From positions 32,001 through 96,000 of IMG/VR virus record IMGVR_UViG_3300028837_002886: a stretch of DNA of 64,000 nt. One strand, given 5' to 3'. A program made the position numbers and the translations under genes. Below, one piece after another: positions 4,497 through 22,210 of the stretch. This DNA is from a virus. Positions within the stretch are counted from its first letter, which is position 1. Every line of letters begins with the position of its first letter. Under the pieces are notes generated by a model, which saw only the letters and a list, made by a program, of their open reading frames with translations, was not told where the DNA came from and ran no database searches.

Positions 4497-4503
4497 TTAT
4501 CTT
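4497..4503 (-). promoter_or_regulatory. AAGATAA motif, putative phage late promoter (representative; 16 sites listed in findings)
   Basis: Intergenic, about 20 nt upstream of the hub gene; the same motif precedes many other starts. Confidence 0.6.
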
Positions 4504-5148: not shown

Positions 5149-5504
5149 TACTTACGCTCCAACAATAACTTTTGACGCTCATTGTTAATGTATCCCCACG
5201 CGGCTTTGTATATTTGATACCTGTGAGCGCCTTCTTGTAACATCATCCATGCGACCTTTTCTACCTTGGGGTGGCACTTCCGACAAAGAGTAACTAAATT
5301 CAAATCTTCGTTGCTGTGAGATATTTTGAAAGGGATAATATGATGAACGTGAAGACCTTTTTTCTCTTCACATATTTTACACCGGCCACCGTCACGTCTT
5401 ACTATACGGGCTCTTATTTTAGGCCAATCTTTGCCGTACTTCGCTTTGCCGTGAAAGTGTATATTATACTTCTGTCTTAGACTTGGATTTTTCTTCATTT
5501 TCAA
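5148..5504 (-). CDS. HNH endonuclease
   Basis: RDGGRCKIC...VHHIIP...NLVTLCRKCH. Confidence 0.9.
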   Translation of the reverse strand: MKMKKNPSLRQKYNIHFHGKAKYGKDWPKIRARIVRRDGGRCKICEEKKGLHVHHIIPFKISHSNEDLNLVTLCRKCHPKVEKVAWMMLQEGAHRYQIYKAAWGYINNERQKLLLERK

Positions 5505-6027
5505 GTATCAACTTGTATACTTTACCCAGCAGAGCGACGGCTTGTTTCAAGACAAGATCAAGGTCATCGACGATTTTGTAGGTTTCGGGCTCTTTTAGTT
5601 TTATTTTCAACAGTTGAGAATAACCATATATCTGATCCAACAGCGCTTTGATGTTCAAGATCAAGTCAGGGAACAGCTCTGAAATCTTGTTTGGATGTTT
5701 GACGGCCTCTCGTATTTTCTCTAGGTGTTCAGCTTCTATCATCAGAAGGATAACAGACTTTTCCTCGCCTTTGATGAGATATCCTATGTGCAACACCAAT
5801 GCTGTATCGTTGACCATAACGACAACTTGTCCTGTTGCATCTTGCTTGATTATCCCATAATACTCTTTGAGAGAATCATCATCAGGGAAAAAATCAGTGG
5901 CACTATAGTCCTCAGCCGCATTTTTATTCATACCATAATAATCTCGGGCTTTTTTATTGGCCTGGATTATTTTTCCAGCTTCACTTAAAACAACTACCCC
6001 TATTGGTAATCTTCCAAAATGTAGCAT
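5464..6027 (-). CDS. PAS-domain protein with His-less HisKA-like C-terminus
   Basis: LPIGVVVLSEAGKIIQANKKA is a PAS start; LILNIKALLDQIYGYSQLL resembles the DHp helix but lacks His; no ATPase domain. Confidence 0.55.
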   Translation of the reverse strand: MLHFGRLPIGVVVLSEAGKIIQANKKARDYYGMNKNAAEDYSATDFFPDDDSLKEYYGIIKQDATGQVVVMVNDTALVLHIGYLIKGEEKSVILLMIEAEHLEKIREAVKHPNKISELFPDLILNIKALLDQIYGYSQLLKIKLKEPETYKIVDDLDLVLKQAVALLGKVYKLILENEEKSKSKTEV

Positions 6028-8617: not shown

Positions 8618-9067
8618 TTATTGTTCATACTCCTTGATGTATTCCGATAGATAATTGTGTACGGTATCCCCGCCTCCCTCCCAGGGCGACTCGATCCATT
8701 TATAATCCCCGTTTATTTCTACTATTTTAATTTCACCTTCGATGTAATCCCTTTGGCCCTCCATATAGGCATACTCCATAGACATCCTTAAAGAAGCTGC
8801 CGCTCCTTCGTATTGTTCCTCTTCTTTGACTTCAGGTGCTTTTTTCACAGGGTTTTCTTGTACTGCGGTAGTGAGTCCTGGATACTTTTCAGCGTCTCGT
8901 TCGTTTCTAACAGAACTTATTATGCAAAGCAGGATGAAAAAAACAACCACAATCACGGAAATCACAAGCCAATGTTTTCGGAAAAATGTAGACAATTTCA
9001 ATCTAAACCTAAACAAACTGCTCATTTGATGTCCTCCTTTTTTTCCTCTATATCTATGTATCCGCAA
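8618..9067 (-). CDS. Membrane-anchored hypothetical protein (start probably MSSLF)
   Basis: N-terminal TM; conserved-looking EYAYMEGQRD...WIESPW. Confidence 0.6.
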   Translation of the reverse strand: MRIHRYRGKKGGHQMSSLFRFRLKLSTFFRKHWLVISVIVVVFFILLCIISSVRNERDAEKYPGLTTAVQENPVKKAPEVKEEEQYEGAAASLRMSMEYAYMEGQRDYIEGEIKIVEINGDYKWIESPWEGGGDTVHNYLSEYIKEYEQ

Positions 9068-9087
9068 AGATAAAATTGAGGTAAATT

Positions 9088-9369
9088 ATGGACTTCACAA
9101 AGGGTGATATTATAAAGTTTGGTGAGATGTTGGTGTTTATCCGCGAGCCCAAAGAAATCGGCATCATTTTCGCCAAGAGGCCCGATTGGCTTCCCGGCGA
9201 ACGTACAAACGAAATGTATATTTTTTTGAAGCCCTATGGTCTTACTCAAATGGCGCCATCAGGGACGTACGGTTGGGGATGGGAAGAGCTAACGATTGAC
9301 GATAAGGATCAAATAAACAAGAAGATTAATATAGAAGTAGCTAAACGTTTTGTTAAGTGGATGTTCTAA
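9088..9369 (+). CDS. Small beta-barrel-like protein (KGDII start) with C-terminal amphipathic motif
   Basis: Has its own AAGATAA motif and GAGG RBS; a lone plus-strand gene. Confidence 0.7.
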   Translation: MDFTKGDIIKFGEMLVFIREPKEIGIIFAKRPDWLPGERTNEMYIFLKPYGLTQMAPSGTYGWGWEELTIDDKDQINKKINIEVAKRFVKWMF

Positions 9370-9374
9370 TGTGA

Positions 9375-10049
9375 TTATTCCCACGCAGGACAATCTTCTT
9401 TATAGGCACAAAAATCACACAATCTGTTTTTAGTAGGTGTCCAACTCCTGGTTTTATTTATCCTATTCGCAACATCTTTCAAGTATTCTAAAAAGTAGTC
9501 TATTTCATCTGATGTGTACGTGTTGGAATCTATAGAACCCAGAAAGCTGTAATATACGATAGTTTCTATTTGCTCTGGAGGGATGCTTCTTTCTTTCGAT
9601 AACACCAACGAATAAAACTTTAGTTGTAGATCGTTCATCCCCTTCCAGAATTTTTTGGAAGTTTTAAAGTCTATAATAATCAAACCCTCGTCAGTGGTGT
9701 AAATCTTGTCGCTTTTTCCCGCCAGATACAGGTTGCCGACGTTGGTTTTTATTTTTTGCTCGTTCTCACCCTTGTAGCCTTCGTATTGTTTAATATATTT
9801 GACAGTATTACCTATGGCCATTATGAGATTACTTTCCATGCGCTTGGGAATGTTAAACTCTCTCTTGAGCTGTTGTAAGATATCACTGACCTTTTTATGC
9901 TCATAGAGTTCCATGAAGCGGTGTACATAACTGCCAAAAACTAAAGCGTCGGTCTCTGGCTGCGGTTTTTCAATCCTGTCAACATAGCGCCACTTATACT
10001 GTAATTTACATATTTCGTAGGTTTTAATTAAACTTGGGGATAAGTACAT
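9375..10049 (-). CDS. PD-(D/E)XK RecB/Cas4-like nuclease
   Basis: LSPS...C, GSYVH, GKSD, IIDFKT, QLKFY, CDFCAYKEDC. Confidence 0.9.
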   Translation of the reverse strand: MYLSPSLIKTYEICKLQYKWRYVDRIEKPQPETDALVFGSYVHRFMELYEHKKVSDILQQLKREFNIPKRMESNLIMAIGNTVKYIKQYEGYKGENEQKIKTNVGNLYLAGKSDKIYTTDEGLIIIDFKTSKKFWKGMNDLQLKFYSLVLSKERSIPPEQIETIVYYSFLGSIDSNTYTSDEIDYFLEYLKDVANRINKTRSWTPTKNRLCDFCAYKEDCPAWE

Positions 10050-10080
10050 ATCACATCCTGATGAGATTATATATGCTTTG

Positions 10081-10389
10081 TCATTTGGTCAGATATGACA
10101 AATCCATAATAAAGAACTTAACAAGCAGATCTCTCTTTCCTTGACTGGTGCTCACAAGAAGGCTCGATTTGCTCAACCTGGTGAATTGCTTCGACACAAA
10201 ACTGCCGGTTGTGCCTCGGAATATATCACGCCAGTATATTCTTCCATCCTTGACGTCTGTTATCTGTATAAGTATATCTGAACCGAACAAACCACCAGCT
10301 GGCCGTTGGGTTTCTCCCCAATATACCTCACCAACTGTAAATGTTTTTGGGTCTTCCCATTTGTTTCCAGGTATGGTTGCTGACTTCAT
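10081..10389 (-). CDS. Hypothetical protein with C-terminal amphipathic motif
   Basis: Start revised to MKSATIP, directly after AAAGATAAT. Confidence 0.6.
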   Translation of the reverse strand: MKSATIPGNKWEDPKTFTVGEVYWGETQRPAGGLFGSDILIQITDVKDGRIYWRDIFRGTTGSFVSKQFTRLSKSSLLVSTSQGKRDLLVKFFIMDLSYLTK

Positions 10390-10405
10390 AACATTATCTT
10401 TGGCC

Positions 10406-10535
10406 AAAAAAATACCCGCGCGAGGGTTATCTAATACAACACCGGAAAACACTTCGCGCGGGGAGAAACTGAATTATATGTGATCGTCAAGCGCCGGCCG
10501 CAAGGTGACGCCTAACTGTCAGTCATCGTCAGCAA
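10406..10535 (-). ncRNA. Candidate small structured RNA
   Basis: GC-rich non-coding stretch between an AAGATAA motif (10539-10545) and a 9-bp stem (10454-10462/10415-10423) followed by a T7 run. Confidence 0.3.
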
Positions 10536-10559
10536 GGATTATCTTAGTGATACAATAGC

Positions 10560-11066
10560 TCACGATTGCTGCTGTTTGAAGAAAGATTCGTTTGGAAATT
10601 TTAGTATATTGTCAAGCAGGCACACTAAAAAGTCTTCATACTTGACAAATCTAACGCTGGCATTATACAATATCGCTTCGTTTTCTCCGTCTATAAAGGC
10701 AAGTATTTTTCTATTATTATATTTTACTATTACAATGGGCTGTTTATTCGCTCTGTGGGCATCTTCACAAGCTTGTTTCCACCAATCAAGCCATTCTGTT
10801 TCCTTGGCGTCGCCAAGCAGACCCCAAAGACTAAACTCTTTGCGAGATTTACATTCAACTGAAAATCTGAAGTTCTTGGGGCAGATTATATCACCGGTTA
10901 AGATACCCTTGGCTTCTTCGGTGAGTATATCTTTTTGTGCTGTTCCTATTGCGCCAGACGTAGGAACACGATTAAATGGTTGATTAAATCTTTCTTTTAA
11001 TATCCCGCAAACCTGACGCTCGAAGGCGTTACCCTTGTGCTTGCTCTGAATCATTGTATTTTTCAA
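10560..11066 (-). CDS. Holliday junction resolvase (Hjc-like PD-(D/E)XK)
   Basis: KGNAFER...SGA...GDI...VECK...WWKQA. Confidence 0.85.
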   Translation of the reverse strand: MKNTMIQSKHKGNAFERQVCGILKERFNQPFNRVPTSGAIGTAQKDILTEEAKGILTGDIICPKNFRFSVECKSRKEFSLWGLLGDAKETEWLDWWKQACEDAHRANKQPIVIVKYNNRKILAFIDGENEAILYNASVRFVKYEDFLVCLLDNILKFPNESFFKQQQS

Positions 11067-11358
11067 TTTCCTTTTTGGTGCTATTTATTAGATCGTTTAA
11101 CATTTCGGTTCTGTCTTTTGTTCTATCATAGGTGAAATGTATATCAGAAAATTTTTCATATGAGCCGTTCTGGGTAGGATTATCAAAAACAATAAAAGGT
11201 ATTTCTATTCTCGTTCTCCCAATACTTAAGTCTATAGCCGCGTGTACTTGTTCGTATAAAAGAGCGTAAGGGCTGTGCTGCCCACGGTACAAAAGGCGAA
11301 TAAAATTATCTGCTTCTATTGCTATTTCCTTAATGTGCAGGAGGTCGATATTATTCAC
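11029..11358 (-). CDS. Hypothetical protein
   Basis: ORF preceded by a CATATATAA motif. Confidence 0.55.
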   Translation of the reverse strand: MNNIDLLHIKEIAIEADNFIRLLYRGQHSPYALLYEQVHAAIDLSIGRTRIEIPFIVFDNPTQNGSYEKFSDIHFTYDRTKDRTEMLNDLINSTKKEIEKYNDSEQAQG

Positions 11359-11373
11359 ATAGTTATATATGCT

Positions 11374-12120
11374 TTATGGTTTGAGGGCTTTTTTGACACC
11401 GAAGGCCGTGGCTAATGTGCCAAGTATTACTGTGTTTTTGAGGGTCAAAATCCACTCTAACTTGAACCAATCAACATTGTAGTGAAAGAAATCAGGATTG
11501 ACTTTATCGAGCCACTTGTAATACTTTTGAAACTTCATAGCTGACCGGTTCTTTCTGAAATAGGTATTCAGATTCCTACAGAGAAAAGTGGTGAGAAAAG
11601 CCCGGGAGTATTTCGTCATTGGCAAATCTGGTATCGGAACTGTCCACTTAATAAACACTTTGTTTGGGATATAACCGATTGTCGCCTTGGCATTTTTCAG
11701 AGTATCTTTAAACCAGGTGTTATGATCAAAAGCGAAAGTTATAGTTCTGTCGTCCAGTTTTTTTATGACTATATATTTGCTTTTTTTGTCTGAGTTGGAT
11801 AGGATCCTGTCTTTCAACCAGGATATTATGTCATTGCGAGTATATATCAACTTTTCTTTGGGAGTTATCCACAAATAATCCCACTTGAATATCATAGTGC
11901 CCATGTGGTCGCCGGAATAAACAAACGTTACTGTCAAAGGGTTGGCGCCTGGTTTTTTCTTTGGAATGGGCTTGTTGAGTTCAGCTGGAGCGAAGTCGCT
12001 TGTTCCAGCCGGTTTTATAGAGTAACCTGGAGCCGTATATCGCTTAGTGTGAAATGTTTTGATAGCGTGTGCGCCAACGATACCTATTGCCGCGGCTTTG
12101 AGTATTTTGCTTATTTTCAT
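11374..12120 (-). CDS. Hypothetical basic protein with hydrophobic termini
   Basis: 248-aa ORF. Confidence 0.6.
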   Translation of the reverse strand: MKISKILKAAAIGIVGAHAIKTFHTKRYTAPGYSIKPAGTSDFAPAELNKPIPKKKPGANPLTVTFVYSGDHMGTMIFKWDYLWITPKEKLIYTRNDIISWLKDRILSNSDKKSKYIVIKKLDDRTITFAFDHNTWFKDTLKNAKATIGYIPNKVFIKWTVPIPDLPMTKYSRAFLTTFLCRNLNTYFRKNRSAMKFQKYYKWLDKVNPDFFHYNVDWFKLEWILTLKNTVILGTLATAFGVKKALKP

Positions 12121-12137
12121 TAATGTGATCTCGGAGA

Positions 12138-12584
12138 TTATTGTTTACTATCTTTCTCGTCATCGTAGCGAGCCTGAGGATTTCTTTTGTAGTTCTCTCT
12201 GCTCCAACTTCTTTCTCTGTCAAGATCGTAAAGCCTCTTGTATTTGAAATCGCTAAATATGCCGTCCGAGTCATAGTCTTTTACACACTCAACTATGACA
12301 GGCAACTTGGACGTAAGCGCGCTGATTTCAGTTAACAGATGAGCCACATAAACTGGTAAACCCGGCAGATTGACCACAACAGGAACACCGGAGCAGAAAT
12401 AATCCTTATTTTTTTCTACGATGTCATGTACTTGTATATAAGTGCTGTGCTTCTTGAGATTGAGAGAGGCTCTAATGTGTACCTGTTCAACATTAGATAT
12501 TTCGTGGTCTTTCTTTATTGCCTTTATTATCCCATCGGACAAGAGGGCACCAAAGTTCAACAGATATGCTTTCTCCACGCTCAT
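12138..12584 (-). CDS. csx15: Csx15-like protein (type III CRISPR ring nuclease/cOA-binding family)
   Basis: LLNF..., VVVNLPGLPVYVAHLLTEISALTSKLPVIV and YDLDRERSWSR follow the Csx15 layout as I recall it (LNFSHPL; NLPG...A.LLAEL.G..G.FP; LNLQ..R..AR). Confidence 0.55.
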   Translation of the reverse strand: MSVEKAYLLNFGALLSDGIIKAIKKDHEISNVEQVHIRASLNLKKHSTYIQVHDIVEKNKDYFCSGVPVVVNLPGLPVYVAHLLTEISALTSKLPVIVECVKDYDSDGIFSDFKYKRLYDLDRERSWSRENYKRNPQARYDDEKDSKQ

Positions 12585-12642
12585 TGTACACTCCTAATTG
12601 TCGACTTGGTGTTATTTCATTTATCTTTATTGGAAAGAAGTA

Positions 12643-12999
12643 TTAGTCTTTATAAAACTTTAAAAAAGTTACAATATAAGCGCGCTTCCACATCGCACGA
12701 CCATTTTCATACAGATACTTTATCTTGTCGCGCTTATTCTCAATATTATACTTAACAGGAGAGTAGTCTGTATCGACAGTGACACTTATTTTTTGTGCGT
12801 CAGGAAGGCCAAGCATTTGAGCAGCCAGCCCTATTGATCGCTTCATATAAGGAAGGCCCTGTGCTCCTGGTTCCGTAAGAGCGACGCGTTCCTTGTGCGA
12901 AATGATAGCAAGGACATGCTGCTCTCTTTTGTCGTCTATGGTGAGCGCTGTATCTTCTTCGTCGAAATCTTTGTAGTTTATTGGTTTTCTTTTCATCAC
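12643..12999 (-). CDS. Hypothetical protein
   Basis: ORF behind an AAGATAA motif. Confidence 0.6.
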   Translation of the reverse strand: MMKRKPINYKDFDEEDTALTIDDKREQHVLAIISHKERVALTEPGAQGLPYMKRSIGLAAQMLGLPDAQKISVTVDTDYSPVKYNIENKRDKIKYLYENGRAMWKRAYIVTFLKFYKD

Positions 13000-13009
13000 A
13001 AGGTTATCT

Positions 13010-13561
13010 TTAGATGAGGAAGTCTTTTATTTGATTCCAGTTTTCAAATGTGTGTTCGAAGGCGTTGTAATTACGGTTGGCGGGGGTTCTAAAGAGTATC
13101 CCTGTTCCCGAAAAGCGGCGCAAACACAAAGGTCTATCATCAATCATGTAGTTTCCTTTTAATCGCCACTTGTCGGTAATGAATATCATTTGTTCATTTT
13201 TGATAAAAGGAAAGTATTTATTCAGCCACTGTATTTTCTCGGGGATACAGTTTTTGCATGGAAACGGGGCGGTACAAACATATACTTGATATTTTTCGTT
13301 GAGCAGTTTTAATACTTCCGCGGCATCTGGTTTTGGCTCGAGATTGAACCAAAAGCCCTTTTTAGAGAATATTTTAGTAAGAATCTCAAAACCCTCTTCG
13401 TCGTTATGACCGAAGCATCTATAAAATTCCCATTGATATATTTCTTCCGGGCGCCGATTAGTGCCCATTAATTCGTTGTATCCATCGACGATGCCCACGA
13501 TCATGTCTGCCAGAACATCATCCATATCTACGTATATAATCTTTTTATACATGTATCTCAT
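13010..13561 (-). CDS. 5'(3')-deoxyribonucleotidase (HAD, NT5C family)
   Basis: YVDMDDVLAD, EKIQWL, IDD. Confidence 0.9.
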   Translation of the reverse strand: MRYMYKKIIYVDMDDVLADMIVGIVDGYNELMGTNRRPEEIYQWEFYRCFGHNDEEGFEILTKIFSKKGFWFNLEPKPDAAEVLKLLNEKYQVYVCTAPFPCKNCIPEKIQWLNKYFPFIKNEQMIFITDKWRLKGNYMIDDRPLCLRRFSGTGILFRTPANRNYNAFEHTFENWNQIKDFLI

Positions 13562-13581
13562 GCTATTATATATGTCATGAC

Positions 13582-13613
13582 AAAAAAAAAAGACAGCTCC
13601 CTAAGGAGCTGCC
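13582..13613 (-). terminator. Rho-independent terminator after cca
   Basis: GGCAGCTCC-TTAG-GGAGCTGTC followed by a T10 run. Confidence 0.9.
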
Positions 13614-14927
13614 TTAGTTGTCAATCTTCTCTTTGATATATCTGATAGCATCTTCCTTGCTTTTCAGAACATCTTCGAGTTGCTTGTCGGTTACATCTTC
13701 CAAAAGCTCCCGGAAGATAGGCCCTGGTTCAAGACCGAGTTCGATCAAATCATGACCGTCGATTAGTCGTGGAGGCTTAATCTCTTCGGGCTCAAAAGTG
13801 TCGAGTTTCTCGTTAATATAATCGTACCACTCAATCATCTTGGTAGAAGAAAGAGAATCGGCACGACATAGTTGCATCAACTCAACCAAATAAGGCTGAG
13901 CGAGCATTCTCTTGAGTTTAGCGGTACGCATCTTGGTTGCTTTCTTAATGCGCATATGGTCATGAATCAAATTATATACCAACTCAATGAACTTGGTTGA
14001 AAACTTAAGCTCTTTGAGCCGCTCTTTGGCCATGTCAGCCCCAACAAACTCATGAGCGCGACTTCTGACTCTGCCGTTCTCATAGACAGTCACCGGAGGC
14101 TTCCCGATGTCATGAAGCAGAGTCGCCCAAATGGTCTCGTCTTTGAGGTCCTCGTTCTCCTCGAAAAGAAGGTCCATTACAATCTTGGTATGCTCAAAAA
14201 CATCACCCTCTGGATGCCACTTGGGTTCTTGTGGACAGCCCTTCATGTTTGCGACTTCCGGAAGAACTTGTTTAAGAAGACCAGAAGACCATAGGAGATC
14301 CAACGCTCTTGTAGATTCACCAAGCCTGAACAGCTTGGACAACTCATCCTGGATCCTCTCGTTAGAAACCTCATGGATTTTATGAGAGTTGCGGACGATA
14401 GCCTGAAAAGACTCGTCTTCAATCTTCATATCAAAACGAACTGCGAACCTAACGGCCCGTAGCATTCTCAACTTATCCTCATCGATTCTTTTTTGAGAGT
14501 CGCCGACAAACCTTAAGTTTTTGTTTTCCAGGTCTTTCTTGCCGTCAACCAGATCGATGAAATGGTCTTCGATAGGATCATAAAACATGGCGTTGATAGT
14601 AAAGTCCCTGCGCTCGGCATCCTCTTGAATGGTAGCATAGGTTACTTTAGAAGGGTGACGGCCGTCCAAATACTCACCGTCGGTTCTGAAGGTGGCCACC
14701 TCAAAAGGGTCGCCGTCCATCATAACCACAACAACACCGAAAGTTTTACCGATGGGAAGGGTGAGGTCAAAAAGCTCCTCAACCTTTTCCGGAAGAGCAT
14801 TGGTGGCGATGTCATAATCATGAGGCTTGTGGCCGAGAAGCATATCGCGGACAGAACCGCCGGCATATACAGCATCATAGCCATTGTCTTGAAGTTTTTT
14901 GACGATGTTTAGTGCTTTGTCTTTCAT
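13614..14927 (-). CDS. cca: CCA-adding tRNA nucleotidyltransferase with HD domain
   Basis: GGSVRD, DYDIAT, RRDFTINA, EDKLRMLRAVRF, HPEGDVFEHT, LLHDIGK; start revised to MKDKAL. Confidence 0.92.
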   Translation of the reverse strand: MKDKALNIVKKLQDNGYDAVYAGGSVRDMLLGHKPHDYDIATNALPEKVEELFDLTLPIGKTFGVVVVMMDGDPFEVATFRTDGEYLDGRHPSKVTYATIQEDAERRDFTINAMFYDPIEDHFIDLVDGKKDLENKNLRFVGDSQKRIDEDKLRMLRAVRFAVRFDMKIEDESFQAIVRNSHKIHEVSNERIQDELSKLFRLGESTRALDLLWSSGLLKQVLPEVANMKGCPQEPKWHPEGDVFEHTKIVMDLLFEENEDLKDETIWATLLHDIGKPPVTVYENGRVRSRAHEFVGADMAKERLKELKFSTKFIELVYNLIHDHMRIKKATKMRTAKLKRMLAQPYLVELMQLCRADSLSSTKMIEWYDYINEKLDTFEPEEIKPPRLIDGHDLIELGLEPGPIFRELLEDVTDKQLEDVLKSKEDAIRYIKEKIDN

Positions 14928-14933
14928 GTTTAT

Positions 14934-14962
14934 ATTATAACCTATATTGCTCGTCCTGTAAA
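14934..14962 (-). promoter_or_regulatory. Sigma70-type promoter TTTACA-N17-TATAAT, leaderless
   Basis: Exact 17-bp spacer; ATG 6 nt after the -10 box. Confidence 0.8.
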
Positions 14963-15151
14963 GGCCGATCGGCCAGAAGAAATGACGGGTTTCCACTGCG
15001 CGCAGGTGGGTATCTTTGGTGATCGATACACGTTTAAGTTAATACACTTAGAAGTGGTGCCAATTGGAATATTCACACGCCAACGACACGTCAAGCATGT
15101 TTTATTCATCAAAAGCATTTTAGCTTTTTTCTTGCGTGTCCAGTTTGCCAT
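14942..15151 (-). CDS. Small Cys-rich protein, AKxLL family
   Basis: MANWTRKKKAKMLLMNKTCLTC. Confidence 0.65.
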   Translation of the reverse strand: MANWTRKKKAKMLLMNKTCLTCRWRVNIPIGTTSKCINLNVYRSPKIPTCAQWKPVISSGRSAFTGRAI

Positions 15152-15428
15152 TATGTTTTTTCCGCATAAGAGATATGTATTTTTTATGCGTACGTTCCAC
15201 ATGTTGCCAGAAGTCATCACGCTTATGGGCGTCATTCACATGAGGATAGTAATCTTCACAAAACAGTTCTTTTGGGACATCACACATTCCGCTGTCGTGT
15301 AAAAATGTGTTTCTTTCTTCAAGTCGACAATACCAGTCTTTATATTCAAAAGAGCCCTTTATACAATAGAGGCAATTTATACATCCTTTATCTAATAGCA
15401 GTTTTTTGGCGACGTTCGCTTTTTTCAT
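15120..15428 (-). CDS. Small Cys-rich protein, AKxLL family
   Basis: MKKANVAKKLLLDKGCINC. Confidence 0.7.
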   Translation of the reverse strand: MKKANVAKKLLLDKGCINCLYCIKGSFEYKDWYCRLEERNTFLHDSGMCDVPKELFCEDYYPHVNDAHKRDDFWQHVERTHKKYISLMRKKHNGKLDTQEKS

Positions 15429-15652
15429 ACTATACGTTTTGAACCTTCCCAAAAATCACATGTTCCCATGACATTTATTTTACAAACTTTACCAATAAAG
15501 TCATGATTTTTATTGTTACTCCAAAGCGGGTGCGCGCAATAATGCCCTATATTATTGCCGTATGCATCTAAATGATAAAAATGTATGCACCTCTGACATG
15601 TTTTACCTAATAATAATTTTTTTGCGCACTCTTTTGTAAATCTATCTCTCAT
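15425..15652 (-). CDS. Small Cys-rich protein, AKxLL family
   Basis: KECAKKLLLGKTCQRC. Confidence 0.7.
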   Translation of the reverse strand: MRDRFTKECAKKLLLGKTCQRCIHFYHLDAYGNNIGHYCAHPLWSNNKNHDFIGKVCKINVMGTCDFWEGSKRIV

Positions 15653-15852
15653 TTCGTTTTATAACCGCGGTAAAAGTCCCGACATGTATAATCATTGGAA
15701 ATATTTTCGTCTACACCACTCTGCCGCGAACGCAACATGCATAAGTATTGGTATTTATGTGTTTTTGGATGAAGACGTCGGTATCCGTAAAGGCACTTGC
15801 AACAGTTTTTGTCCAACAATAATTTTTTAGCTACAACGCTCTTGCTTATCAT
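15649..15852 (-). CDS. Small Cys-rich protein, AKxLL family
   Basis: KSVVAKKLLLDKNCCKC. Confidence 0.7.
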   Translation of the reverse strand: MISKSVVAKKLLLDKNCCKCLYGYRRLHPKTHKYQYLCMLRSRQSGVDENISNDYTCRDFYRGYKTK

Positions 15853-16448
15853 GGCATAGTTTCAGGATTAGAAAGCATACTGATAAAGGACCTGTATTCG
15901 CGTATCATGTTTATGAATATGTGTCCTTGTTCAATAGCATCATCAATAGCCTTGTGAGTGTGCTTGTGTGCCGTATTCATCCACCGGCCTGGCATCCTGG
16001 CTTTTGTTACTTTTCGGTACTCGCAATTTATCAAAAACATTGCAAAAGTTTTCATGTCCAGCGCAGAAAACGAAAATGGCGAATGCTTCATGAATCTTAT
16101 GAGATACCAGTATACAAAAGTGAAATCAAAACCTGCGGGAAAAGCAACGAGCACGGGTTTGCAGTTAAACTTCAAAGCGGTTGCAGTGACCCACTTGTGA
16201 AACCGTTTCATTACTTCTTCCGGATCTCCGGGATTCTTTCGGCATTCATCCCACGCCTCTTTGTTGCGACTCCAGAACTTCATGGTATTAGGATCCTGCT
16301 CTGCATCCGGAAGTTCCTTGAGATTAGCTTCAAATGTTCCTACCATGTTTCCTTCACGGTCAAATGCCGCGGCCGCAATGCTCAACATAGAGTTAGGACC
16401 AGGTATGGGACCGTCTGCTTCTACGTCAACACTAAAGTACATTTCCAT
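15849..16448 (-). CDS. DEDDh 3'-5' exo(ribo)nuclease (Rv2179c/RNase AS-like)
   Basis: SVDVEADG, GFD, LDMKT, HKAIDDA. Confidence 0.85.
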   Translation of the reverse strand: MEMYFSVDVEADGPIPGPNSMLSIAAAAFDREGNMVGTFEANLKELPDAEQDPNTMKFWSRNKEAWDECRKNPGDPEEVMKRFHKWVTATALKFNCKPVLVAFPAGFDFTFVYWYLIRFMKHSPFSFSALDMKTFAMFLINCEYRKVTKARMPGRWMNTAHKHTHKAIDDAIEQGHIFINMIREYRSFISMLSNPETMP

Positions 16449-20632: not shown

Positions 20633-22210
20633 CTAAATTATATCAAATGCAGCCTTAACTAGAGCTTGTGTATATACGCTCTTTGGTTTCTCAAGGACCT
20701 CTCCAGCCTTGCCCTCCTCCATAACTACACCATCTTTAATAACGATAATCAAATGACTCATCGCCTTTACAACGCGAAGATCGTGACTTATAAATAAATA
20801 TGCCAGTTTATAGGTGCGCTGCAACTCTAATAAGAGATCTATCAGCTGATTTTGAATTGATCGATCCAAAGCTGATGTAGGCTCATCTAGAATTAAAAGT
20901 TTGGGTTTTAACACTAGCGCTCTAGCTATACATATGCGTTGTCTTTGACCTCCACTAAACTCGTGTGGATATCTATTTCGGATGTCTGGCTCCAAGCCTA
21001 CTTTGATTAAAGTTTGCCATACCATATCATTCCAACAACCCTTAATGTTGTGAGCGGATAATCCTTCTTCTATAATTTGGCCTACAGTTAAACGAGGGTT
21101 AAGGCTTGCGAAAGGATCTTGAAACACAATTTGAATTTCTTGTCTGTAAGGTCTCATTTCTCCACTTAGAAGATTGTTTAATTCTACGCCTTGAAACTTG
21201 ATCTGGCCTTTACTAGAAATCAATCTCAAAACCGCTAACCCAAACGAGGTTTTGCCCGATCCGCTTTCTCCAACCAAACCGACCGTCTCTCCCTCTTTGA
21301 TTTTAATCGTGATTCCATCAACAGCTTTCACATATCCTTTTACTTTCCTGAACATGCCTTTATATATAGGATAATGTACTTTAAGATCGTTGGTTTCTAA
21401 AACTAGTTTTTTCTTGGTAGTTTCTATAGGCTTTTGCTTTGGAATAGACGCAAGCAAATACTTTGTATATGAGTGTTGAGGATGTTTAAAAATACTAAGA
21501 TTATCCCCGCTTTCTACAATCTCCCCATCTTTCATTACGCCAATACGGTCAGCCATTTTTTCTACTATATAAAGATCGTGCGTGATTAACAACATTGACA
21601 TATGTAACTTGTCGCGAAGCTCTCTTATGAGCTTCAATATCTCTCGCTGTATCGTGACATCCAGAGCGGTTGTGGGTTCGTCTGCTATTAATAAATCTGG
21701 CTTGTTTGCGAGAGCTAAGGCTATCATAACTCGCTGTCTCTGACCGCCAGACAACTGGTGCGGAAATGAACTCAAGCGCTGCTCGGCATGATCTAGCTGA
21801 ACCTGATCCAACAACTCGATCGTTCTTGCCCTTCTTTCGCCCCCTGTTACATCTTGATGAAGATCGATAATCTCACCGATTTGCTTCTCGATTGTATGGA
21901 GAGGATTAAGCGATGTCATAGGCTCTTGGAATATTATAGAAACATCATTTCCTCTAATCTTTCTCAATCTCTCCTCGGAACATTCAAAAACATTGTTGTT
22001 CTTTAATATTATTGAGCCATCGTATCTCGTATAAGCAGGTAACAGTTGCATAATCGCATGAGCGGTGGCCGACTTACCTGCTCCACTTTCCCCTACGAGA
22101 GCAAAAGTTTCTCCTTTTTTAATGTCAAAAGAGACACCTCGGACAGCATCAATGCGCTGTTGAGGCATCTCAAACTTTACAAATAGATTCTTTATAGTGA
22201 GTAAGCTCAT
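20633..22210 (-). CDS. yejF: Dual-domain ABC transporter ATPase YejF
   Basis: Two Walker A motifs (GESGAGKS, GESGSGKT), two SGGQRQR, two DEPT; adjacent to yejB/E. Confidence 0.9.
   Translation of the reverse strand: MSLLTIKNLFVKFEMPQQRIDAVRGVSFDIKKGETFALVGESGAGKSATAHAIMQLLPAYTRYDGSIILKNNNVFECSEERLRKIRGNDVSIIFQEPMTSLNPLHTIEKQIGEIIDLHQDVTGGERRARTIELLDQVQLDHAEQRLSSFPHQLSGGQRQRVMIALALANKPDLLIADEPTTALDVTIQREILKLIRELRDKLHMSMLLITHDLYIVEKMADRIGVMKDGEIVESGDNLSIFKHPQHSYTKYLLASIPKQKPIETTKKKLVLETNDLKVHYPIYKGMFRKVKGYVKAVDGITIKIKEGETVGLVGESGSGKTSFGLAVLRLISSKGQIKFQGVELNNLLSGEMRPYRQEIQIVFQDPFASLNPRLTVGQIIEEGLSAHNIKGCWNDMVWQTLIKVGLEPDIRNRYPHEFSGGQRQRICIARALVLKPKLLILDEPTSALDRSIQNQLIDLLLELQRTYKLAYLFISHDLRVVKAMSHLIIVIKDGVVMEEGKAGEVLEKPKSVYTQALVKAAFDII

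Follow-up and report, generated by a model that had tools for sequence, protein, structure and literature searches.

Csx15 is a bacterial protein that binds or cleaves cyclic adenylates, the alarm signal in type III CRISPR immunity, and several Csx15 proteins have been characterised. For HaCsx15 and CsCsx15, H8 and R125 are reported to be catalytic and R118 to be required for binding and filament formation, and the HaCsx15 variants H8A and R125A are described as losing catalysis while keeping multimerisation and the binding of cyclic tetra-adenylate (cA4). In CliCsx15, according to the published account, H13 is catalytic, the H90A substitution abolishes cA4-induced oligomerisation and Y113 stacks on adenine; PDB entry 9teu, in which an offset of 7 turns chain residues H20, H97 and Y120 into H13, H90 and Y113, is taken to be this protein. 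PfCsx15, an orphan protein of Pseudomonas fluorescens (PDB 9tet), is reported to act as a sponge for cA4 (Chi et al. 2026); its ligand site is described as comprising S9 and H11 on one dimer and H82, R116, R120 and R123 on the other, and the H11A substitution as abolishing both cA4 binding and sponging. Finally, the Csx15 domain of CbCash (PDB 9ylu) is reported to bind cA4, which stacks on F241 and F275, and to form filaments (PMC13462974). Here we describe a gene for a Csx15-like protein in a 64,000-nucleotide stretch of viral DNA, called the window below, which comprises bases 32001-96000 of the linear, 130,931-bp IMG/VR virus record IMGVR_UViG_3300028837_002886 (CheckV completeness about 70 %). 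We compare this protein and its relatives in large phages with the characterised Csx15 proteins, and ask what it might do for the phage.

Viruses are known to interfere with cyclic nucleotide signals by other means. AcrIII-1 is a viral enzyme that targets cA4 and has a fold unrelated to Csx15, and the phage cyclic-nucleotide sponges act on signals of Thoeris or of cyclic-oligonucleotide-based antiphage signalling systems (CBASS) and are not expected to share fold or sequence kinship with Csx15. The place of Csx15 itself in viruses is disputed between two studies of 2026. Ring-nuclease hidden Markov models were run on 28,114 phage genomes by Hoikkala et al., and Chi et al., citing that work, state that Csx15 was seen in no phage genome. 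Klimavicius et al. (bioRxiv 10.64898/2026.10.26.761840, October 2026), on the other hand, describe viral Csx15 as rare and mostly confined to prophage regions, ClusteredNR having yielded one homologue and env_nr together with IMG/VR 'over 20'; they name it 'vCsx15 / AcrIII-3' and propose, without experiments, that it is a ring nuclease. An assay of a viral copy is reported in the main text of neither study. The idea that a viral Csx15 serves as an anti-CRISPR is thus already published, and a full-text literature search for 'AcrIII-3' returned this preprint only.

A divergent Csx15 homologue in a clade of large phages

The window protein matches the NCBIfam model CAS_Csx15 (NF040560) at E 2e-5 over profile positions 2-123 of 125, with a score of 24.8 bits (24.5 bits in a six-frame search) that falls under the curated cut-off of 35 bits; the PADLOC Csx15 model gives E 0.0014. 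Pfam contains nothing significant (INTS7_C at E 0.05, REC102 at E 0.13) and PHROGs no family, and the nearest ESM Atlas cluster is annotated as 'putative CRISPR-associated protein Csx15' (score 0.92). A word-indexed search gave 128 candidates, among which were 97 unnamed homologues with 53-95 % identity. These 97 clusters at 90 % identity make up what we call the phage clade, and the residue census reported below covers the query and all 97 homologues (98 sequences). All 38 clade members in our family alignment match NF040560 at E <= 0.01 (best E 1.5e-13). When 1.84 billion representatives were searched exhaustively with a profile, 42 proteins emerged at E <= 0.001, and these grade from the phage clade into canonical Csx15; every one of 17 distant matches among them hits NF040560, and one of them (P0116) scores 89.7 bits. 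When the phage clade was aligned with these 17 canonical sequences by hhalign, the probability was 99.8 % and the E-value 1.7e-28 over 128 columns. The phage sequences on their own gave weak rows against PDB sequences (best E 0.066, CbCash 0.32), so a profile that included the bridging sequences was needed, and this matches the solved proteins 9teu (9.7e-15), 9tet (1.1e-11) and CbCash 9ylu (2.9e-15). These profile comparisons identify the window protein as a divergent but genuine homologue of Csx15 over its full length. This agrees with an earlier reading of the same DNA, made from the letters alone and referred to here as the sequence-only reading, which had recognised a Csx15 layout along the whole protein and had quoted five strings from it, all of which are present (LLNF at residues 8-11, VVNLPGL at 70-76, AHLLTEI at 81-87, KLPVI at 93-97 and DLDRERSWSR at 120-129).

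The predicted structure points in the same direction. An AlphaFold2 model of the window protein (mean predicted local distance difference test, pLDDT, 87.4; predicted template modelling score 0.77) shows an alternation of strands and helices that includes five main strands. In a VIA comparison with 48,161 PDB representatives, a library that apparently lacks the Csx15 entries themselves, the top five matches are all SAVED domains (Z 7.0-7.7), in agreement with the published structural kinship of Csx15 and SAVED. Modelling thus assigns the window protein a Rossmann-like alpha/beta fold related to SAVED/CARF. Its best match is the viral SAVED ring nuclease AcrIII-2 (PDB 9r8s; Z 7.7, root-mean-square deviation 3.5, 112 residues aligned), which is also a viral protein but differs in being an enzyme that targets cA4, with a duplicated (SAVED) fold and a catalytic histidine. 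In a complex prediction with four copies of the protein and four molecules of adenosine monophosphate the score was 0.02, with the mark set at 0.42, and the result speaks neither for nor against oligomerisation.

The gene is encoded by a phage. PHROG matches in the window include a tape-measure protein, a DNA helicase, an HNH endonuclease, an ABC-type ATPase and a RusA-like resolvase, together with a PD-(D/E)XK exonuclease, a DNA methyltransferase and a tRNA nucleotidyltransferase. The whole record, about 70 % complete as it is, contains neither a match to the Cas10 models TIGR02578 (Csm1) and TIGR02577 (Cmr2) nor a CRISPR-like repeat array, which bears out the claim of the sequence-only reading that a phage carries this gene apart from cas genes and arrays. 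Hoikkala et al. report that 25 % of the genomes that carry Csx15 have no type III locus. Against 50,697 GenBank phage records, megablast of window positions 9000-16000 found no match, and tblastn found none at E <= 0.01 for either the window protein or canonical P0116, so no isolated phage relative is known. For the record's phage helicase, identity to any listed phage does not exceed 32 %. Nearly identical DNA occurs in several sequencing runs, from two studies, that are labelled marine sediment metagenome.

Relatives of the locus were sought by pattern-based scans. In IMG/VR these confirmed five of 40 pattern matches, on contigs of 158-388 kb, and among the genomes of 185,579 species they confirmed two of 42, both on contigs in metagenome-assembled genomes (MAGs). 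The latter (loci L007 and L008) are contigs of 39 kb and 117 kb in MAGs labelled Gammaproteobacteria and Thermoplasmatales, respectively, with the same gene order as the IMG/VR loci L003-L006. Given this shared phage gene order they look like binned phage contigs and were probably mis-binned, so their labels provide no evidence as to the host. The clade is carried by large, lytic-looking phages (contigs of 131-388 kb) from sediments and other habitats. In an unrooted tree of 47 sequences, canonical Csx15 stands apart from the phage family and 'intermediate' sequences with support of 99/96, and the phage family forms one clan (98/96) with terminal branches much shorter than those of canonical Csx15. 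The intermediates, more distant and also without the motif histidine, were traced as follows: a sequence resembling P0098 lies on a single 158-kb viral contig, IMG/VR gave no match for P0099 or P0103, a metagenome scan gave one 1.2-kb contig alone and a cluster look-up mostly short contigs. Five distant phage records that share only a remote relative of the neighbouring exonuclease all lack the gene; as all five are fragments (15-70 % complete), this is weak evidence for its restriction to the clade.

Within the clade the gene is under strong purifying selection and is far more conserved than its neighbours. Between the window and L003-L008 the Csx15-like protein is 56-62 % identical, compared with 26-30 % for the neighbouring exonuclease and 24-29 % for the downstream gene product, which we call F1; for the closest phage (L002) the corresponding values are 76 %, 66 % and 57 %. 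The sequence-only reading had spoken of a 'captured' gene. A recently captured accessory gene is not what these comparisons describe, since the gene is found across the clade, keeps a fixed order with a partner and changes far more slowly than the genes around it.

Catalytic residues are missing and most ligand-site residues are kept

We mapped the residues of characterised Csx15 proteins onto the window protein by alignment to 9teu, 9tet, 9ylu and the canonical Csx15 set. The N-terminal histidine (H8 of HaCsx15 and CsCsx15, H13 of CliCsx15, H11 of PfCsx15) corresponds to A13, so that the protein reads NFGAL where canonical Csx15 has NFGHP; this replacement had been noticed in the sequence-only reading and turns out to extend to the entire clade, in which position 13 is Ala in 71 sequences, Ser in 12, Thr in ten, Val in three and a gap in two, and never His. 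The first and second tail arginines correspond to R125 and R129 of the window protein, and the third, R125 of HaCsx15, to Y132, where the census gives 78 Tyr, 18 Phe, one His, one Asn and no Arg; the HaCsx15 numbers in this comparison (R118, R122, R125) were assigned by the R-x3-R-x2-R spacing alone and not by the HaCsx15 sequence. With 0/98 at both positions, the phage clade has lost both of the residues with proven catalytic function in HaCsx15, and its C-terminal arginine triad is reduced to two of three. The central histidine (H90 of CliCsx15, H82 of PfCsx15) corresponds to S88. Here the clade is divided, with His in 82 sequences, Ser in 15, including the window protein, and Asn in one. 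We had also considered the histidine of the AHLL string (H82 of the window protein) for this role, and rejected it because the alignments place the central histidine at S88.

Other features of the Csx15 ligand site are preserved. The base-stacking aromatic residue (Y113 of CliCsx15, F106 of PfCsx15, F275 of CbCash) corresponds to F113 and is aromatic throughout the clade (57 Tyr and 41 Phe). Residues invariant in all 98 sequences are Q51, which is also at least 90 % conserved across the wider Csx15 set, D54, N72, P74-G75-L76, E86, E99, C100, K116, R117, R125 and R129; nearly so are F11 and P77 (97 sequences each), N10 (96), G12, H53 and K45 (95 each) and K44 (91). Some of this conservation is peculiar to the phages, whose family-specific invariant motifs are SLNLKK, QVHD, EC and KRLY.

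Set against its closest described relatives, the phage protein shares with canonical Csx15 (HaCsx15, CsCsx15 and CliCsx15; NF040560) its size, full-length homology, the Rossmann/SAVED-like fold and order of secondary structure, the N-F-G head loop, the LPGL loop, Q51, the base-stacking aromatic and the first two tail arginines. It differs in lacking the N-terminal histidine and third tail arginine clade-wide and, in the window protein, the central histidine, as well as in being encoded by a phage whose record holds no cas genes, in scoring below the family cut-off and in its separate branch (99/96). PfCsx15 is similar in being a stand-alone protein with no CRISPR locus for which non-catalytic binding has been proposed; in contrast, it is bacterial, keeps H11, H82 and three arginines and reportedly needs H11 in order to bind (Chi et al. 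2026). The closest parallel in terms of missing histidines is CbCash, in which both positions are, by alignment, likewise non-His (Gln in CbCash). Its F275 aligns with F113 of the window protein and its F241 with a leucine (L76) that is invariant in the phage clade. CbCash is different in that its Csx15 domain is fused to a Schlafen tRNase effector, sits in type III loci and is described as contacting cA4 through one dimer only (PMC13462974). By analogy, CbCash nevertheless provides a solved precedent for the binding of cA4 by a Csx15 domain without these histidines.

A putative sponge and the alternatives

We give an even chance to the reading that the window protein binds cA4, or a similar cyclic oligonucleotide, without catalysis, as a sponge, and in this way blunts type III CRISPR or CBASS signalling. 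The cutting residues are gone and most binding residues are kept, and so the protein would probably trap the alarm signal. In this model, a stand-alone Csx15-fold protein of a large tailed phage would form Csx15-type dimers, and these would bind cyclic oligoadenylate (cOA), most probably cA4 but possibly other cyclic oligonucleotides, by means of the head loops N10-F11-G12 and N72-L-P-G-L-P77, the base-stacking F113 and the tail residues R125 and R129. The ligand would be held but not cut, whereupon the free second messenger made by the host type III CRISPR (or CBASS) system would fall and effector activation would be blunted. The reading draws on the retention of the ligand-site residues, the loss of the catalytic ones, the precedents of PfCsx15 and CbCash and the very strong purifying selection on the gene. 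In this model the protein would, like phage sponges such as Acb2 (cited by Chi et al.), sequester an immune second messenger stoichiometrically. With the vCsx15 / AcrIII-3 of Klimavicius et al. the protein has in common that it is a virus-encoded Csx15 homologue proposed to act against cyclic-nucleotide signalling; what differs is that the clade described here lacks the catalytic residues, comprises 97 clusters and resides on contigs of 131-388 kb, with some overlap with the published Figure S8 set being possible. The main texts of 10.64898/2026.10.26.761840 and 10.64898/2026.01.21.700848 make no mention of a clade of this kind, large, highly conserved, seemingly stripped of catalysis, accompanied by a fixed partner gene and carried by large phages. 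If cA4 is bound, the protein would be the first sponge against type III systems to make use of the host's own regulator fold, and it would probe whether sponging works against a high type III cOA output. If it is not, the conservation of the gene and its fixed partner suggest that a fold of defence sensors has taken on an unknown role in phages. Since the proteins are small and look soluble, the question is directly testable.

A number of observations weigh against a sponge. The window protein has S88 at the position where CliCsx15 needs a histidine (H90) for cA4-induced oligomerisation, and loss of the N-terminal histidine can also cost binding, since it is the H11A substitution that abolishes cA4 binding and sponging by PfCsx15. 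More generally, Chi et al. argue that the cOA output of type III systems is so large that sponging may be ineffective. A gene that is clade-wide, syntenic and slowly evolving has the look of a core gene, which is unusual for anti-defence; its fixed linkage to F1 hints at a different, two-gene function; and the family-specific residues H53, D54, K116, R117, E99, C100, K44 and K45 could make up a novel active site. Nor need the host carry a type III CRISPR system. The fold matches described above are modest (Z below 8), and Foldseek returned nothing from the PDB at E <= 0.001 (best Csm6, 5fsh, 1.7e-3). Profile and structure searches had both been suggested in the sequence-only reading as a check on kinship with Csx15: the profile comparison upheld it (hhalign 99.8 %), and the Foldseek search did not.

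The residue pattern can also be read in two other ways, both of which we consider unlikely, and to the same degree. In one, the protein has rebuilt its catalytic site (for example from H53/D54, K44/K45 or K116/R117) and degrades cA4 or other cyclic nucleotides as an active ring nuclease, and so would be a true 'AcrIII-3'-type enzyme. H53 and D54, conserved in 95 and 98 of the 98 sequences, lie only two and three residues past the invariant Q51, the central histidine that has been implicated in CliCsx15 catalysis is kept by 82 of the 98, and in the published view viruses are expected to favour degradation over sponging when facing type III CRISPR. On the other hand, the residues that are catalytic in HaCsx15 are gone in every sequence and the window protein lacks the central histidine as well, and this same combination tells against the ring-nuclease half of the earlier proposal of a captured ring nuclease or cOA sponge. 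In the other, nucleotide binding has been lost and the protein does something else, for instance as a structural or oligomeric scaffold in phage DNA or RNA metabolism or as a decoy for a host protein of the SAVED/CARF or Csx15-interacting kind. Three characterised ligand-site residues are indeed altered (A13, S88 and Y132), and the gene lies among genes of nucleic-acid metabolism (an NT5C deoxynucleotidase, a CCA-adding enzyme, an RNase T-like exonuclease, a RusA-like resolvase and a PD-(D/E)XK exonuclease). However, the invariant residues that have been retained (NFG, NLPGLP, F/Y113, R125, R129 and Q51) are exactly the ones that make up the ligand site of Csx15.

The remaining possibility concerns F1, a fast-evolving protein of about 250 residues that is probably anchored in a membrane and has hydrophobic N- and C-terminal helices. 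The order in which the Csx15-like gene precedes F1 is kept in all nine loci (the window, L002-L008 and L024) through three different gene arrangements, in which the exonuclease gene switches side. In the window the two genes are close together with no terminator predicted between them, and in CbCash and other fused effectors Csx15 domains are reported to sense cA4. A slowly evolving sensor beside a fast-evolving partner would fit this pattern, and it is conceivable, though no more probable than the two alternatives above, that the pair forms a ligand sensor module which reads a host alarm or a phage-made nucleotide and controls F1, for instance in lysis timing, superinfection exclusion or membrane remodelling. 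A more specific and still less probable version is that the phage eavesdrops on the type III CRISPR/CBASS alarm (or on a nucleotide of its own making), with ligand-driven oligomerisation of the Csx15-like sensor controlling F1 and thereby switching the phage's own programme, for instance to early lysis or exclusion. F1 offers no recognisable effector domain or fold in support of such a module: it belongs to no Pfam or PHROGs family, its word search gave one close homologue only and its ESM Atlas search no usable match, and its AlphaFold2 model (overall pLDDT 68.7, core about 70-93) has no match in BFVD at E <= 0.001 and a best PDB Z of 5.1, on a 63-residue piece. Moreover, other open reading frames (ORFs) intervene between the two genes in seven of the nine loci, and the adjacency could be plain inherited backbone synteny. 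The intervening genes include F6, a small conserved ORF of about 87-97 residues that is present at this position in six loci (L003-L008) and absent in the window and L002, and in L008 there is also a 381-residue ORF on the opposite strand.

Neighbourhood and probable transcription of the gene

The minus strand holds nearly all genes of the window, the Csx15-like gene included, and the features around it are collected in the table.

Features at the Csx15-like locus (positions in the window)
Feature	Position	Strand	Remarks
Csx15-like coding sequence	12138..12584	-	ATG start, 148 residues; from the ORF list and the NF040560 match
AGGAG Shine-Dalgarno sequence	12591-12595	-	6 nt ahead of the Csx15-like ATG; read from the sequence
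AAGATAA motif	12621-12627	-	37 nt upstream of the Csx15-like ATG
F1 gene	11374..12120	-	248 residues; begins 17 nt past the Csx15-like stop
Terminator-like hairpin, strong	13590-13615	-	stem of 11 pairs followed by 8 T; lies between the genes for the CCA enzyme and NT5C

The gene does have a copy of the AAGATAA motif to itself, as the sequence-only reading had pointed out, and the motif is over-represented. The window contains 36 copies compared with 21.7 +/- 4.7 in shuffled sequences, a number matched by one in 100 shuffles, and the coding strand carries 31 of the 36. Across the whole genome there are 54 copies, of which 13 are located in DNA that a crude gene call leaves as non-coding and that makes up 5.9 % of the total (binomial p 1.3e-5). 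Where an intergenic copy precedes a gene it is mostly 19-37 nt upstream of the start codon; examples of AAGATAA(T) sites, all on the minus strand, are at 4497, 31137, 34240, 44930 and 12621. The motif often reads cAAAGATAAT and may therefore contain a -10-like GATAAT. It is probably a phage-specific promoter element; no sigma-70-type promoter is predicted at the site that precedes the Csx15-like gene. The hairpin listed in the table probably ends the upstream transcription unit, after which come NT5C, an ORF of 118 residues, the Csx15-like gene and F1, and the last two are probably transcribed together from the gene's own AAGATAA-type promoter. A single library, which bears the label metatranscriptomic but is flagged as likely to be DNA, gave three small contigs; all of them fall within the gene for the CCA enzyme and none within that for the Csx15-like protein, which speaks neither for nor against expression of the latter.

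Just upstream of the Csx15-like gene (13010-16448, minus strand), its immediate neighbours among them, are the NT5C deoxynucleotidase, a 460-residue CCA-adding tRNA nucleotidyltransferase with an HD region and a 3'-5' exoribonuclease resembling RNase T and Rv2179c. These three could be a tRNA 3'-end repair set. Its position beside a Csx15-like gene is of interest because Csx15-Schlafen effectors cut tRNAs, but any tie between the two is speculative.

Two further genes of the window deserve mention. One (5464-6027, minus strand) encodes a 187-residue phage protein whose N-terminal part is a PAS domain (PAS_9, E 1.2e-6), a kind of sensor not usually seen in phages. The other (20633-22210, minus strand) encodes a double ABC-ATPase of 525 residues (phrog_293, E 1e-138).

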